Positions 45,841 through 59,018 of a stretch of 64,000 bases of DNA are shown here, one piece after another. The notes beneath the pieces were generated by a model. It worked only from the letters and a program-made list of their open reading frames with translations, did not search any database and was not told where the DNA came from. The stretch lies in the UHGV virus genome UHGV-0348865; one strand, given 5' to 3'. The stretch comes from a virus. Each line of letters starts with the position of its first letter. Position 1 is the stretch's first letter. A program made the position numbers and the translations under genes.

Positions 45841-47631
45841 ATGTCAAAGATCATTTTGGGGGACACAGGTTGTAAGGAATGTATCTCTCATGGTCGTGAT
45901 AAAACCCACAACCACATGATTCTCTTCCGTAACGAAGAGACTGGTGAGGAGTGGGGAAGTTGTAACCGTTGTGGGAATTACGAAGTGTTCGAAAAGGGCG
46001 CTACACCTACTCCAAACGAGAAGAAAGAGTTATCCCCTGAAGAATTGAGAGAAGTCTTAGATGATTGCTTAGAGCTTCCTCAGGGTGAGCTTACTCGACG
46101 TTTAATCCCTAGAGCTGTATCAGAGCGTTTTGAGTGTCGTATTGGCCTCAGTCAAACTGATGGTCAGACACCAGACAGTTACTTCTTTCCTCGTGAACGT
46201 GATGGAAACATTGTCGGGTATGAGGTGAAGCTGCTAGATAGTAAGAAGTTCTATTACGTCGGCAGTGTGAAAGAAGCAGATTTGTTTGGTATGGCACAAG
46301 CTCAACGTGGAGATGTGTACAACAAGAAGCTCTTCATTTTTGAAGACCCGCTATCCTGTATGTCAGGTTTCCATGTCCTTACAGCTTTTACAAATGCAAC
46401 AAACATTAAACCAGCATGTGTTTCTTTACCGTTCGGTGCAGGTTCAATCTCTTCTGTGTTGTCTCGTAATCGAGACTTCGTAAATGGTTTTGAGGAGGTT
46501 GTGCTCTGCATGGACAACGATGATGCAGGTGAGATAGCTTTAACAAAAGGTCGTTCTTTATTCCCTCATGTTAAATTTGCTCGTATTCCTAAAGGAACTT
46601 TCCCGTATAACGGTGTGGAGAAAGAGATTAAGGATGCGAATGACATGCTTCTGTCTGGTCGTGGTCAAGAGTTATTCAACATTCTCAAGTATTCAGCAAA
46701 GCGGGAATCCCCTGCTGGTGCTGTAACAATCTTTGATTGCCTTGATGATGCTCTGAAGAAAGCGGAGTGGGGTATCCCCTATCCGTGGAAGACTCTGAAT
46801 GAGATGACCTTCGGCATTCGATGGGGAGAGGTGGTAGCAATTGGTGGTGGAGTTGGTAGTGGTAAAACACTCATTGCTCACGAGCTGGTTGCTCATCTGT
46901 GCTTAGAGCATGGTTTTAATGGAGGTGGCTTCTTCTTGGAAGAGAAGGTAGGCATGTCTGTTAAGAACATCGCTGGTAAGTCAGCATCTATTCCTTTCCA
47001 CCGACCAGATGTTGAATATGATGAGGAGGATTTGCGTAATGAAGCACTTCGTTATGCAGATAAATTCTTCTTATATGACAACTTCGGACAGAACGAATGG
47101 GAAGACATTAAACAGTGTATTCGTTTCTGGGTAGTTGAAAACCAGTGTAAGTTTATCATTCTTGATAACATTACCGCTCTGGTATCTCATTTAACACCTT
47201 CAGAGATTAACACTGAAATCAGTAAGATTGCTTCCGAGCTTGCTGGTATGTGTAAAGAGTTAGACTTTACCGCTTTCGTGCTATCTCACCTTAATGCTCC
47301 GGCAGGTGGTGCTCCTCACGAAGAAGGTGGACAGGTACGTGAAGTACAGTTCACTGGCTCTCGTTCTCTTATGCGTTGGTGTCAGTGTATCATTGGCTTT
47401 GAGCGTGACAAGCAAGCTGACGGCTTAGCTAAGAACCTCTCAGTCATTCGATTACTGAAAGAACGTAACTACGGTCAGACAGGTGTCTGTTATACTAAGT
47501 ATATCAGTGAAACCGGTAGACTTGTAGAAAGGGAAGACTTTGAAGTTGATGAAGATAATCCATTCGTTTTAACTAACGGAGAGGATGCAGCTTCTCTCGT
47601 CAACCAAGCAGATGGAGCTTCACCGTGGTAA
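45841..47631 (+). CDS. DNA primase/helicase, T7 gp4-like
   Basis: N-terminal Cys4 zinc ribbon (CKEC...CNRCGNYE), TOPRIM-like middle, Walker [10 protein letters not shown] helicase domain. Confidence 0.8.
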
Positions 47632-48182
47632 AGAAAAAGAAGAAAGTGTTTGCATTCGATATCGAGAGTAATGCACTGTACGATGACATAACTAAAGTAT
47701 GGTGTATCTATATCTTCGATGTTGAAACTGGTGAAAGGTGGGGCTATCGGCCTCACCAAATTGAAGACGGGATTCGTAAACTGACAGAAGCAGATGTACT
47801 AGTTGGTCATAATATTATTGACTTCGACTTACCTGCTCTGAAAAAGATGTATCCCTCTTTGATTAAATATAATTTTAACGTCTTTGACACTTTATGTCTT
47901 AGTCGATATCTTAAACCTGACCGTATTGGTGACAGTCCTGAGTATCCGAAAGGCGACCCTAGACGTGGCCCAAGAGGTCACGGCTTGAAGCAATGGGGTG
48001 AGTTCTTAGAGGAACTTAAAGGTGACTACGGTGAGCAAGAGGAAGCATGGGATGCTTTCACTGAAGATATGTTTACTTATTGTGAACAGGACGTTAACTT
48101 GACTGTTAAGGTTTATCTTTTCTTGTGTGAACTCACGGGATTTGACCCTTACGACCCACCTTCATTATATTGGAAAATGTAA
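47625..48182 (+). CDS. DNA polymerase 3'-5' exonuclease domain (T7 gp5 N-terminal homologue) as a separate ORF
   Basis: FDIES (Exo I) and [11 protein letters not shown] (Exo II) motifs align with the T7 DNA polymerase N-terminus; overlaps helicase stop. Confidence 0.75.
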
Positions 48183-48183
48183 A

Positions 48184-49545
48184 ATGATTGTTATCCCGAT
48201 TAACCAAATTGAAGATAAGGTTGCTCAACAACCTGATATCGCTGTTGGTCGTCACTTCATTGAACAGTTGATTAACAACAACTTGATTCCAGACGGTATC
48301 TGTCCCATCATTACTGGGGGGGCTGTTCGTGATGCTATCCTTAACAATATAGCCCCACATGACATTGATATCTTTATTGTCAGAGGACAAACACCAAGAA
48401 CTCAAAACACTTTCATCCCAACTGATCATTGGCAAGAGCTTGGACGGGAGATTGAAAGCAATGTGAAGGAATGGCTAGAGTCACAAGATATTGAATATGC
48501 ATCACTTCTTGCTGAAGCTACAAACGAATCCTATGCTGGGGGTTCTCAATTAACATTCACTGATATTATTGAGTTTCAGTGGAATGGGGTTCGTATCCAA
48601 TTCATGTTTAATTATCCTACTTCTATCGAAGAGGTATTGGATAATTTTCCTATGATGTGCCGTGGTGCGATGACTCTTGACAACTTATTCATGACTTCTC
48701 ACGGATACTTGGCTATGACTGCCCCTTGTCCAGTGGTTGTTTCTAGTCGTGAAATCAGGTATGTTCACAAGAAGTGGCCTAACTCTCAGGTATTGAGGTT
48801 TTCCTCTCCAGCAGTTGCACATCAATACATGGCCCAAACTCGATATCTTCCTACACCTCAACCAGTTAATCATCTGGTCAACGAACAAGGTCAGGTTGCT
48901 CTTCTTGAGGATACAACAAGTGCTCAATATTGTGTTAACCGTGACATGAGTCGATTCTTTGGAATCCCCTATGAAGAGATTCAGCTAATGTCAAGCACAC
49001 ATGGCTCTAGCCAGATTTATGCGTATTGGTCTGAAGGGTTGACAAATTTAACGACTAACACGGGCGGTGATCTGCTTGGTCGAGAAGATGAACCTAACCG
49101 ACACAATGCAATTGAAGGGGTGTTTGTAGCCCCTGCAATGCGTCGAGCACAAGAGTCACGAAGAGTAAGTCCTACTCGTAGAACATCTTTTGAAGAGGCT
49201 CTTGGTGTTACTGGCGATTCATTTGAGCGGTGGTTGTCTAGACGTTCTAATGGTCGACCAAACGGCTTAAACGTTAGTGCACGTCAGTTCTCTGGTCAGG
49301 GTTTTGCTGTTGGTGATATCAACGCACCTGTTAGGGCTGTGTGGGCTGATGAAGGTGTGACCCTAGATGTGGTAGGTAGTCTTGATATTCCTTCTCATGG
49401 GGAACTTGCTGAGACTGTCAACCGCAGCCTCGCTGATCGGTTTATTGCTAACAACCCTGAAGTATTAGAACCTCAAACCCGTACAGTTCGGTTTGCCGAT
49501 GAAGCGGGTCGTGGAATCTCTTTTGATATGGAAACAAATAACTAA
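48184..49545 (+). CDS. nucleotidyltransferase of the CCA-adding / poly(A) polymerase head-domain type
   Basis: motif ITGGAVRDAILNNIAPHDIDIF matches GGxVRD...DxD signature. Confidence 0.5.
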   Translation: MIVIPINQIEDKVAQQPDIAVGRHFIEQLINNNLIPDGICPIITGGAVRDAILNNIAPHDIDIFIVRGQTPRTQNTFIPTDHWQELGREIESNVKEWLESQDIEYASLLAEATNESYAGGSQLTFTDIIEFQWNGVRIQFMFNYPTSIEEVLDNFPMMCRGAMTLDNLFMTSHGYLAMTAPCPVVVSSREIRYVHKKWPNSQVLRFSSPAVAHQYMAQTRYLPTPQPVNHLVNEQGQVALLEDTTSAQYCVNRDMSRFFGIPYEEIQLMSSTHGSSQIYAYWSEGLTNLTTNTGGDLLGREDEPNRHNAIEGVFVAPAMRRAQESRRVSPTRRTSFEEALGVTGDSFERWLSRRSNGRPNGLNVSARQFSGQGFAVGDINAPVRAVWADEGVTLDVVGSLDIPSHGELAETVNRSLADRFIANNPEVLEPQTRTVRFADEAGRGISFDMETNN

Positions 49546-49554
49546 GGAATAAGA

Positions 49555-57820: not shown

Positions 57821-57933
57821 CGTAAATGGATACTTCGAGAGTAATCTCGTCGATTAAATTGGGTGAACTCAGGGAAACTCTCTAGTAGACAATCCTGAGC
57901 CAAGCAAGTATTCTATAGCAACTCAACAAGGAG

Positions 57934-58440
57934 GTGCTTATGGAATATACAACTGTAACTAAAACTAAAGAAGAACAGACTGCCGAGGCAGGTAAATACC
58001 CTCAAGGTCAGTTCAACCCAAAACCTTGTCGTAATTGCTCAAAAGATTTTCAACCAAATGCACCATCTGAACATTATTGCTCTGATGGATGCAAAGATAG
58101 AGGCTGGAGAAATTCATACTTCAAACGAATGTATGGAATCACAGCCGATGATTACGAAAAGATGTACGCTGATCAGGATGGGAAGTGTGCTATCTGTAAG
58201 GGCGAAGGGTTTGTAATGGCAACACATCACAGAATTAGACTTGTGGTTGATCATTGCCATGAATCTGGAGTAATACGTGGTCTGTTGTGCCACAACTGCA
58301 ACAGAGCTTTAGGGCTACTGAAAGATGATGTTAGCCGATTAGAAACAGCTATAGAATACTTGAAGGTGCAACGACTATCCGAAAGGAGTACACCGGAAGC
58401 TGATGCCGGTGGAAGCGCCCAACCCCTCGACAGAGGGTGA
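57934..58440 (+). CDS. HNH / endonuclease VII-like homing endonuclease inserted within DNA polymerase gene
   Basis: Cys-rich N-terminus, motif HRIRLVVDHCHESGVIRGLLCHNCNRALG (His-Me finger). Confidence 0.65.
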   Translation: MLMEYTTVTKTKEEQTAEAGKYPQGQFNPKPCRNCSKDFQPNAPSEHYCSDGCKDRGWRNSYFKRMYGITADDYEKMYADQDGKCAICKGEGFVMATHHRIRLVVDHCHESGVIRGLLCHNCNRALGLLKDDVSRLETAIEYLKVQRLSERSTPEADAGGSAQPLDRG

Positions 58441-58496
58441 TGATATAGTCTATCCTACACGGCGACGTGTAGCAGTTCATAAGAGAACGGGCAGGA

Positions 58497-59018
58497 GTGT
58501 TGCGGCTCCTGTCGAATATACGAGATGCATTCAACTACGGTGCTGGTGATGCTAAGCTAGGTTCAATTGTAGGAGGCGGGGCTGACGAAGGTTCAGTGAT
58601 GCGAGCACGTTTCTTGGCAGAGAACCCATGTATTGCAATCCTTATTGATCGTATGACAGAAAAGGCTGCTCAGGGATACTTGATTGGTGTTGATGGTCGT
58701 AAGATTACAATGAGACGAGATGCCACTGGTAAAGTTATGGTTCATAAAGCTCTTAACACACTCCTGCAATGTGCTGGTGCTGTTGTTATGAAATATGCTA
58801 TGATGTTCCTAAACAAGTGGATTGAGAGAGATGGAGTTCGTTGTGCTAAGGTAATTGATATGCACGATGAAGGTCAATTCTCAGTAAACCGTAATGATGT
58901 ACAGAAACTCAAAGAGCACACCGAGCTTTGTGTTAAGAAGGCTGGTGAGTATTTGAACATGGAGTGTCCTCTGGCTTCTGATTGTCAGATTGGATTAAAT
59001 TGGATGCATACGCACTAA
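58497..59018 (+). CDS. DNA polymerase (T7 gp5-like) polymerase-domain fragment 2
   Basis: GTG start; AFNYGAGDAKLGSIVGG and KALNTLLQCAGAVV align with T7 YGFLYGAGDEKIGQIVGAG and ALNTLLQSAGAL. Confidence 0.8.
   Translation: MLRLLSNIRDAFNYGAGDAKLGSIVGGGADEGSVMRARFLAENPCIAILIDRMTEKAAQGYLIGVDGRKITMRRDATGKVMVHKALNTLLQCAGAVVMKYAMMFLNKWIERDGVRCAKVIDMHDEGQFSVNRNDVQKLKEHTELCVKKAGEYLNMECPLASDCQIGLNWMHTH

Follow-up and report, generated by a model that had tools for sequence, protein, structure and literature searches.

The polymerase locus and its surroundings

The locus described here encodes a family A DNA polymerase of the T7 type and its 3'-5' exonuclease, and lies within a stretch of 64,000 nucleotides (nt) from the virus genome UHGV-0348865, hereafter called the window. 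At the DNA level, the 12.5 kb around the locus were 92–94% identical to many phiEco32-group phages of Escherichia, Shigella and Yersinia, with 133 records matching that region in a nucleotide search, and the locus is therefore assigned to a module for replication and nucleotide metabolism in a podophage resembling the kuraviruses. Judged by this similarity, the window carries the replication module of a coliphage of the phiEco32 type (Kuravirus, Gordonclarkvirinae), and represents 64 kb of a genome of about 69–78 kb, the rest of which was unseen. Hits were called using Pfam profiles with their cut-offs, sequence matches to PDB entries, tblastn, Rfam covariance models and MAFFT alignments.

A first-pass annotation of this DNA had proposed a T7-type DNA polymerase encoded as three separate pieces. 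The three open reading frames (ORFs) concerned, at 47625–48182, 56468–57820 and 58497–59018, were all recovered from the ORF list, and the assignment to the T7 type also held; among solved structures, T7 gp5 gave the best match to the exonuclease part and to the polymerase part alike. The division into three pieces did not hold, since the three ORFs make up two genes, the second of which is interrupted by an intron. The main features are as follows.

47625–48182, plus strand: stand-alone 3'-5' proofreading exonuclease gene of the DEDDy type, 185 amino acids (aa), from Pfam, PDB match and orthologue annotation
56468–57818, plus strand: polymerase exon 1, codons 1–450 and the first base of the Tyr451 codon, with a GTG start and an AAGGAG Shine-Dalgarno sequence 6 nt upstream
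57819–58524, plus strand: group I intron of subgroup IA2, 706 nt, as assigned from Rfam, boundary alignment and covariation
57940–58440, plus strand: gene for a predicted homing endonuclease of 166 aa, which is of the endonuclease VII / HNH type and Cys-rich near its N-terminus, from Pfam and relatives
58525–59018, plus strand: polymerase exon 2, completing the Tyr451 codon with its last two bases and adding codons 452–614 and the stop, from alignment to phiEco32 and SGF2

The polymerase reading frame across the break

The ORF at 56468–57820 encodes 450 aa, ending in ...PTRDNAKTFI directly before a stop codon, and on its own gave no Pfam match at E below 0.01; the ORF at 58497–59018, encoding 173 aa, matched the C-terminal part of Pfam DNA_pol_A with 60.4 bits (cut-off 34.3). 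Motif A (YDGSGLELR) lies in exon 1 and motif C (MHDEGQ) in exon 2, while motif B is divided between them, with RDNAKTFI as its first half in exon 1 and YAFNYGAGD as its second half in exon 2. The break thus falls within motif B, in the middle of the O-helix, in agreement with the earlier placement of a cut inside the conserved DNAKTFI / YG region. Joining position 57818 to position 58525 rebuilds a tyrosine codon split 1+2 (T/AT, the slash here and below marking the break) and restores the reading ...TTT ATC TAT GCA..., with the junction-spanning peptides ...KTFIYAFNYGAGD... and ...TFIYAFNYGAGDAK... in the product. Motif B then reads RDNAKTFIYAFNYGAG, and motifs A (DGSGLELR) and C (HDE) are likewise intact. 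The interrupted codon specifies the O-helix tyrosine that the PDB alignment pairs with a tyrosine in T7, which we take to be Tyr526.

The joined product has 614 aa, of which 611 (99.5%) are identical to the uninterrupted gp53 of phiEco32. It gave one continuous DNA_pol_A match across the junction (aa 361–611, 82.1 bits), its residues 421–614 aligned to residues 496–704 of T7 gp5 in the PDB match (E=4e-33), and as a whole it corresponds to approximately residues 197–704 of gp5. With removal of a group I intron at the RNA level, the polymerase domain would therefore be one 614-aa polypeptide and not two subunits.

The apparent third ORF starts at a GTG codon at 58497, which lies within the intron helix P9.2 (see below) and abuts an AGGA sequence directly, with no spacer. 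By its position this ORF start is an artefact inside the intron, the last coding piece beginning instead at 58525, and separate translation of the third ORF from this codon was rejected on the P9.2 location together with the spacerless AGGA.

Inside the polymerase gene, at 56495–56523 on the plus strand and within codons 10–19, lies a sequence that matches the sigma-70 consensus perfectly (TTGACA-17-TATAAT, also with an upstream TG). No other perfect match occurs in the 64 kb, for which chance would predict 0.01, and the site is kept in place in phiEco32, SGF2 and Bas94 and absent in Bas89; in LUZ24 and PhiCHU a perfect sigma-70 consensus is instead found upstream of the polymerase gene cluster. 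This sigma-70-like site may be a candidate for an internal promoter or for origin priming.

The group I intron

The interval 57821–58496, across which the first-pass annotation had suggested looking for splicing, is not empty. It contains a third nuclease ORF (Endonuclease_7, 83.9 bits) and a group I ribozyme, and it points to a break that is resolved at the RNA level. The elements of the ribozyme, all on the plus strand, were assigned as follows.

57828–57832: internal guide sequence GGAUA
57836–57849: P2
57859–57863 with 58418–58422: P3
57868–57899: P4/P5
57905–57916 with 58351–58362: P6a, enclosing a loop of 434 nt
58373–58377 with 58446–58450: P7
58378–58411: P7.1-GUA-P7.2
58424–58437: P8
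58455–58472: P9
58490–58513: P9.2
58524: terminal G

The intron was found in a permissive Rfam scan of 57600–58700, where Intron_gpI (RF00028) matched over 57804–58472 (model positions 1–253, 43.5 bits, E=1.5e-9); in this match the nuclease ORF is a 434-nt insertion in P6. Scanning the whole window at the Rfam gathering thresholds gave no intron, only a weak tRNA-like match.

Alignment to the uninterrupted genes of phiEco32 and SGF2 set the boundaries at 57818/57819 and 58524/58525. Exon 1 ends with ...ACGTTTATCT at 57818, the intron runs from GACG to ACGAG, and exon 2 begins with ATGCATTC at 58525. These ends follow the group I boundary rule, with U preceding the 5' splice site and G (G58524) being the last base of the intron. 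For P1, the exon sequence UAUCU (57814–57818) pairs with the guide GGAUA, with U57818 opposite G57828, and this helix covaries with the exon, being UAUCU with GGAUA in the window and CAUCU with GGAUG in LUZ24.

Covariation was analysed using ORF-less versions of six introns (window, Bas94, Aeromonas phage MQM1, LUZ24, Vi06 and Berlin) aligned with MAFFT. Over ten helices (P1, P2, P3, P4, P5, P7, P7.1, P7.2, P8 and P9), 96.1% of the cells were paired, as compared with 29–45% when the 3' partners were slid by 1–3 columns as a control. Changes on both sides were seen in 27 of the 51 pairs, a value reached by none of 500 shuffles. P7 (GACUA with UAGUC) was invariant in all six introns. In a table of helices compiled by hand, P6a and P9.2 differed in sequence in almost every intron, yet their pairing was kept. 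The segment at 58378–58411 carries UCC-GAAA-GGA, GUA and CACCGG...CCGGUG, and the joining of P7.1 and P7.2 by G-U-A is taken in PMC3428280 as the signature of subgroup IA2. By these sequence criteria, the break in the polymerase domain is a canonical IA2 group I intron. Of the two alternatives originally offered for the split polymerase, assembly in trans or unusual expression, the latter thereby agrees with what was found for this break, while a trans-acting subunit is the natural reading to be inferred for the split between exonuclease and polymerase only, as considered below.

The same evidence bears on a rival explanation, according to which a free-standing homing endonuclease would have split the polymerase domain into two translated fragments of 450 aa and about 170 aa that assemble in trans with no splicing. 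Genes split by free-standing endonucleases occur in T4-like phages, both pieces are open here, and a GTG-initiated ORF does begin at 58497. Against such a split at the protein level, however, stands a complete group I core with strong covariation that flanks the endonuclease ORF, with boundaries that obey the U/G rule and restore a codon split 1+2. Furthermore, the GTG in question is situated inside P9.2 next to the AGGA, the break interrupts the O-helix midway, and the homologous intron of LUZ24 is spliced in vivo (PMC10914365). Taken together, this makes two translated fragments very improbable in our view.

The endonuclease encoded within the intron

The ORF located in the P6a loop matched Pfam Endonuclease_7 (PF02945) at 83.9 bits (cut-off 23.6, 7e-24), with the motif DHCH...CHNCN. 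It is preceded by a ribosome-binding site, AAGGAGG at 57928–57934, 5 nt before the ATG at 57940, which is most likely its start codon, as also annotated in Bas94. The encoded protein was 56% identical to gp35 of LUZ24 and 59% identical to gp19 of Yersinia phage Berlin, both of which are annotated as endonuclease VII, and it is thereby predicted to be a homing endonuclease, which would have the corresponding cleavage activity. Roughly its last 30 codons coincide with ribozyme core sequence, reaching from the 3' strand of P6a as far as P8. The TAA stop of LUZ24 and Berlin is CAA in the window, whereby the ORF continues for about 23 codons past their stop (58372–58440), over P7, P7.1 and P7.2 as well as P8 and the 3' strand of P3; the endonuclease ORF of Vi06 shows the same read-through. 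The spread of the intron is patchy, with only 2 phage records holding at least 80% of it, as compared with the 133 records matching the 12.5-kb region.

The separate exonuclease gene

The product of the gene at 47625–48182 matched Pfam DNA_pol_A_exo1 (PF01612) at 34.7 bits (cut-off 23.6, 2e-8), and its residues 10–160 aligned to residues 3–178 of T7 gp5 in the PDB match (E=1e-11). The catalytic motifs are kept, with FDIES as Exo I, HNIIDFD (HNxxDFD) as Exo II and YCEQD as Exo III, and the protein represents the N-terminal domain of gp5, residues 1–196 approximately. Its GTG start overlaps the stop codon of the preceding primase/helicase gene (GTGGTAA), with a GGAG Shine-Dalgarno sequence 8 nt upstream, and from this overlap the exonuclease and the primase-helicase are probably translationally coupled.

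Aligning the two gene products to T7 gp5, a check that the first-pass annotation had suggested, located the break between them, with the exonuclease covering about residues 1–196 and the polymerase about 197–704. The concatenated exonuclease and polymerase sequences of the window, LUZ24 and Proteus phage 3H10_20 were colinear with T7 gp5 and with the fused enzyme of MQM1, and the three split lineages all break in one and the same linker, after approximately gp5 residue 196 (alignment columns 233–243 for the window, LUZ24 and 3H10_20). At the ends of exonuclease and polymerase, fewer than 15 residues each were unaligned in all three split lineages; nothing was lost, and no room is left for a split intein. 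An identical split, at this linker and within the same order of genes, is found in phiEco32, LUZ24-like and Privateer-like phages. The common order, seen in phiEco32, LUZ24/PhiCHU, Proteus phage 3H10_20 and the window, is gamma-glutamyl cyclotransferase, primase/helicase, exonuclease, variable cargo and polymerase, where the cargo amounts to 1.7 kb in PhiCHU, about 2.3 kb in LUZ24, 4.5 kb in 3H10_20 and 8.3 kb in the window. Comparison between related phages, also proposed earlier, thereby gave intact as well as split versions at both breaks, with the polymerase gene being uninterrupted in phiEco32 and SGF2, the exonuclease and polymerase fused in MQM1, and the exonuclease split off in phiEco32, LUZ24 and 3H10_20.

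These features are in line with the existing annotations, since the orthologous phi32_74 (phiEco32 gp74) is named 'DNA polymerase exonuclease subunit', the LUZ24 record likewise names an exonuclease subunit, and phi32_53 is entered as a polymerase, with the remark that it 'lacks 5'-3' and 3'-5' exonuclease domains'. The separation of the two genes has been reported as common to all members of the group (PMC9965538), with separate exonuclease and polymerase genes noted for every LUZ24-group phage and for phiEco32 (PMC3517423). As judged from the alignments, exonuclease and polymerase are genuinely divided into two genes, and this split is ancient.

Since the cut lies neatly in the linker between the two domains and cost no sequence, it is fairly likely that the 185-aa exonuclease docks on the polymerase, thereby rebuilding a proofreading enzyme of the gp5 type. 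The basis for this docking is domain homology, the term 'exonuclease subunit' in the databases being an annotation. An exonuclease that is not a stable subunit of the polymerase, but acts alone or together with the primase-helicase as a diffusible proofreader or in DNA processing, would fit the overlap of its start with the primase/helicase stop, seen not only in the window but also in phiEco32, LUZ24 and PhiCHU. It would also fit the distance of 1.7–8.3 kb to the polymerase gene, which in the window lies behind terminator-like hairpins. An independent role is nonetheless unlikely, considering that the cut falls exactly in the inter-domain linker of gp5 without loss of sequence on either side, that the exonuclease has its closest homologues in the N-terminal domains of fused polymerases of the T7 type, and that both genes co-occur in every split lineage examined.

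Joining of exonuclease and polymerase by a split intein after translation, or an intein as the cause of the internal break in the polymerase, was also considered, and split inteins are indeed described for fractured replication genes of phage and metagenomic origin (PMC2677866). The sequence rules this candidate out and it is vanishingly improbable, as the C-terminus of the exonuclease and the N-terminus of the polymerase abut the gp5 linker with no spare residues, as no intein or Hint domain was found among the Pfam matches, and as the internal insert is out of frame, has stop codons and is an RNA ribozyme.

Finally, the three ORFs could be decaying pseudogene remnants, with replication being performed by another polymerase, either a phage copy in the part of the genome outside the 64-kb window or the host enzyme. 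The related possibility of pseudogene remnants next to an intact polymerase, raised in the first-pass annotation, received no support, because tblastn with the spliced polymerase and the exonuclease gave no second copy of either in the 64-kb window, and because exonuclease motifs I–III and polymerase motifs A–C are all intact. A pseudogene is also difficult to reconcile with the 99.5% identity of the spliced protein to phiEco32 gp53 and with an arrangement kept across three phage groups. The relatives listed, including complete kuravirus genomes, have one exonuclease and one polymerase locus per record, with the exception of myPSH1131, which has two polymerase places. We therefore find gene decay extremely improbable.

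Proposed expression of the polymerase and weighing of the evidence

We propose that the locus encodes a two-gene polymerase, the second gene of which carries an IA2 intron with a homing endonuclease, and that the separate exonuclease most likely docks on the polymerase; to this reading as a whole we assign a probability of about 0.88. In the precursor mRNA the guide GGAUA would pair with the exon sequence UAUCU to form P1, free guanosine would attack after U57818, and ligation of the exons after G58524 would give one continuous polymerase ORF of 614 aa. Unspliced RNA would be read to a stop at the TGA spanning the 5' splice site, giving an inactive fragment of 450 aa. Upon co-infection, the endonuclease would cut intron-less polymerase alleles, into which the intron would then be copied, and such endonuclease-driven copying would explain the patchy distribution of the intron. 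The exonuclease and polymerase polypeptides, in turn, would most likely dock non-covalently to form the gp5-like enzyme. In silico, the analysis showed how the genes are built, where the intron begins and ends, how the ribozyme folds, and the homology and distribution of the parts; from these results we infer splicing in this phage, activity of the endonuclease and association of exonuclease with polymerase.

A number of points weigh against this proposal. The present phage is known from its sequence, and its splicing is predicted from LUZ24 and from the general chemistry of group I introns. At 43.5 bits, the Rfam match falls short of the gathering score of 50, which is a curation cut-off and not a biological criterion. 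MAFFT misaligned P6a, P9.2 and the P2 of LUZ24, so that P6, P6a and P9.2 were excluded from the formal pair count, and the helix table in which P6a and P9.2 were checked by hand was itself hand-picked. Pairing of a P10 helix with exon 2 amounted to 2 bp at best, as assessed by eye. The literature searched gave neither biochemical evidence for a complex nor any experiment in which the separate exonuclease binds the polymerase. In addition, two strong terminator-like hairpins are located between the exonuclease and polymerase genes:

51961–51989, plus strand: strong terminator-like hairpin with T-rich tail
55268–55291, plus strand: strong terminator-like hairpin with T-rich tail

With these hairpins, the exonuclease and the polymerase may belong to separate transcription units and thus be carried on different transcripts. 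As for the Rfam score, its low value is probably due to the 434-nt ORF insertion, since the LUZ24 intron, which is spliced in vivo, scored lower still (40.8 bits) and the MQM1 homologue, which occupies the same site and has no ORF, reached 75.1 bits, above the threshold. The default Rfam threshold misses ORF-bearing introns of this kind.

Comparison with known systems

The feature is real, ordinary for its phage group and already known. The exonuclease split was reported for phiEco32 (2008) and relatives and restated in 2023, the three-ORF layout and the intron site were described for LUZ24 (2008), whose splicing was confirmed again in 2024, and two BASEL kuraviruses (2025) have this intron annotated. 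Its main value here is as a correction for annotation and scan pipelines, where an apparent three-piece polymerase is a two-gene enzyme with a mobile intron. The exonuclease–polymerase pair would also make a simple model in which to study proofreading in trans within a T7-type replisome.

The closest parallel in layout is LUZ24, a Pseudomonas phage (Bruynoghevirus) having an identical ORF arrangement with gp25 as exonuclease subunit, gp34 as 'DNA polymerase part II', gp35 as endonuclease VII and gp36 as the polymerase C-terminus. The two phages share the break point between exonuclease and polymerase, and LUZ24 has a homologous IA2 intron with a homologous core at the identical position (...TTC ATC T/...G/AT GCG...). 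It differs from the window in its host, in a polymerase that is about 39% identical, and in an intron of 669 nt lacking P7.1, in which the endonuclease ORF ends at the 3' strand of P6a. In vivo splicing of the LUZ24 intron is given in PMC10914365, citing Ceyssens et al. (2008), and according to the passages of PMC3517423 and PMC10914365 that cite that work, the LUZ24 architecture was described there.

Among the kuraviruses, phiEco32 (gp74 exonuclease, gp53 polymerase) and others share the genus-level module, the split and the syntenic cargo with the window, whereas in phiEco32 the polymerase gene is uninterrupted and both of the free-standing HNH genes found in the window are lacking. ManiMatter_Bas94 and AidaStucki_Bas93 of the BASEL collection have the 706-nt intron at the same site, with 96.3–96.5% identity. 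The Bas94 record gives the polymerase coding sequence as a two-piece join with an 'endonuclease VII' inside it, and the match in Bas93 was in two pieces over the same two feature names; the exon-2 flank is ATGCGTTTAACTAT in Bas94 as compared with ATGCATTCAACTAC in the window. The BASEL paper never uses the word intron, referring only to 'homing endonuclease insertions' in an otherwise syntenic locus.

T7 gp5 has all of the exonuclease and polymerase motifs and is colinear with the exonuclease and polymerase of the window, but is a single chain of 704 aa encoded with no intron. Compared with gp5, the polymerase of the window has a shorter thumb loop at the place of thioredoxin binding, where its residues 63–135 align weakly to gp5 289–357, as well as extra insertions of roughly 40 and 30 aa. 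Aeromonas phage vB_AsaP_MQM1 carries a homologous intron at the identical site, with compensatory changes in P2 and P3 relative to the window. In contrast to the window, MQM1 encodes exonuclease and polymerase in one fused gene, as T7 does; the intron there has 289 nt and no endonuclease ORF, and a second intron is found downstream.

Other phage polymerase genes (Berlin, Vi06 and BUCT695; phiI/W31; SPO1/SP82/Bastille/Pf-WMP3; phiL7) have introns that likewise are of the IA2 type, with an HNH ORF in P6a, and that interrupt a conserved polymerase motif. Those of Berlin, Vi06 and BUCT695 share the core and the 3' end with the intron of the window, but are inserted 5 nt further upstream (after ACGTT in ACGTT/T, as compared with after ACGTTTATCT), have another guide sequence and lack P2.

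Related introns at staggered sites in motif B

The related introns occupied three sites within 17 nt of the motif B (O-helix) coding sequence, in T7-like, Grimontviridae, Bruynoghevirus, Gordonclarkvirinae and MQM1-type phages:

Site A, ACGTT/T (ACGUU/U): Berlin and Vi06 (T7-like) and Aeromonas phage BUCT695 (Grimontviridae)
Site B, ATCT/AT (AUCU/AU), 5 nt downstream of A: window, Bas93/94, LUZ24 and MQM1
Site C, AACT/AT (AACU/AU), 12 nt downstream of B: KarlSchell_Bas89

The coordinates of the related introns, within the stretches compared, were as follows.

Vi06: 2484–3112
Berlin: 2056–2735
Bas89: about 1664–2443
MQM1: 2995–3283
LUZ24: 4644–5312

Introns from all three sites share the core and the 3'-terminal sequence GCAGUUCAUAAGAGAACGG / GCAGTTCATAAGAGAACGG, and they differ mainly in the guide and the P2 region, including whether P2 is present. 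On these sequence comparisons, the chances seem to us even that one IA2 intron lineage has colonised three O-helix sites in at least four phage groups. If true, this would provide a natural series of group I intron re-targeting together with cross-family transfer. The O-helix codons of this polymerase clade form a dense hot spot of related introns, which should be useful for studying how introns and endonucleases change targets. The site in the window corresponds approximately to position 762 of E. coli Pol I, in the region of about 760–766, going by an alignment of the T7 and Pol I O-helices. Published intron sites in polymerase genes correspond to E. coli Pol I positions 674, 676 and 881 (PMC3428280).

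In Klebsiella phage RCIP0053, two copies of the 3' half of the intron core (GTGTAACGACTA...GATATAGTC...) were seen about 900 nt apart, at approximately 2500–2620 and 3420–3560. This double core, in an unannotated polymerase region, could represent a twin or a rearranged intron.

Genes between the exonuclease and the polymerase, and other observations

The first-pass annotation had counted about ten genes between the exonuclease and the polymerase, a number that rose to about 19 plus-strand ORFs, and it had correctly noted nucleotide-metabolism genes and two HNH endonucleases among them, as a dCTP deaminase, ThyX and two HNH_3 genes were identified. The block also contains a nucleotidyltransferase, a Dps-like protein, a thioredoxin, an Nlig-Ia domain protein, PhoH and small ORFs, and it is syntenic with phiEco32 genes 73 to 54 except for the HNH insertions. 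No ribonucleotide reductase gene was seen in the stretch examined.

48184–56451, plus strand: gene block of 8.3 kb with about 19 plus-strand genes, from the ORF list and Pfam
48184–49545, plus strand: nucleotidyltransferase with a weak PolyA_pol head-domain match, directly after the exonuclease
49555–50088, plus strand: dCTP deaminase-like gene, next after the nucleotidyltransferase
50903–51397, plus strand: first free-standing HNH_3 endonuclease gene, absent from phiEco32 and SGF2
52203–52481, plus strand: phage thioredoxin
54759–55253, plus strand: second free-standing HNH_3 endonuclease gene, present in SGF2 and absent from phiEco32

Both HNH_3 genes, located between conserved genes, fit mobile homing endonuclease insertions. 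T7 gp5 takes host thioredoxin as its processivity factor, and a role of the phage thioredoxin in processivity of the present polymerase would be speculative.

Elsewhere in the window, where ARAGORN called no tRNA at any position, the weak Rfam tRNA match was found at 31341–31419 on the plus strand (33.2 bits, gathering 29), with a truncated D-arm region and an insertion of about 20 nt before the T-arm. As for the nucleotidyltransferase and the dCTP deaminase-like gene following the exonuclease, the BASEL paper suggests that these two could underlie a DNA modification behind the restriction resistance of these phages.

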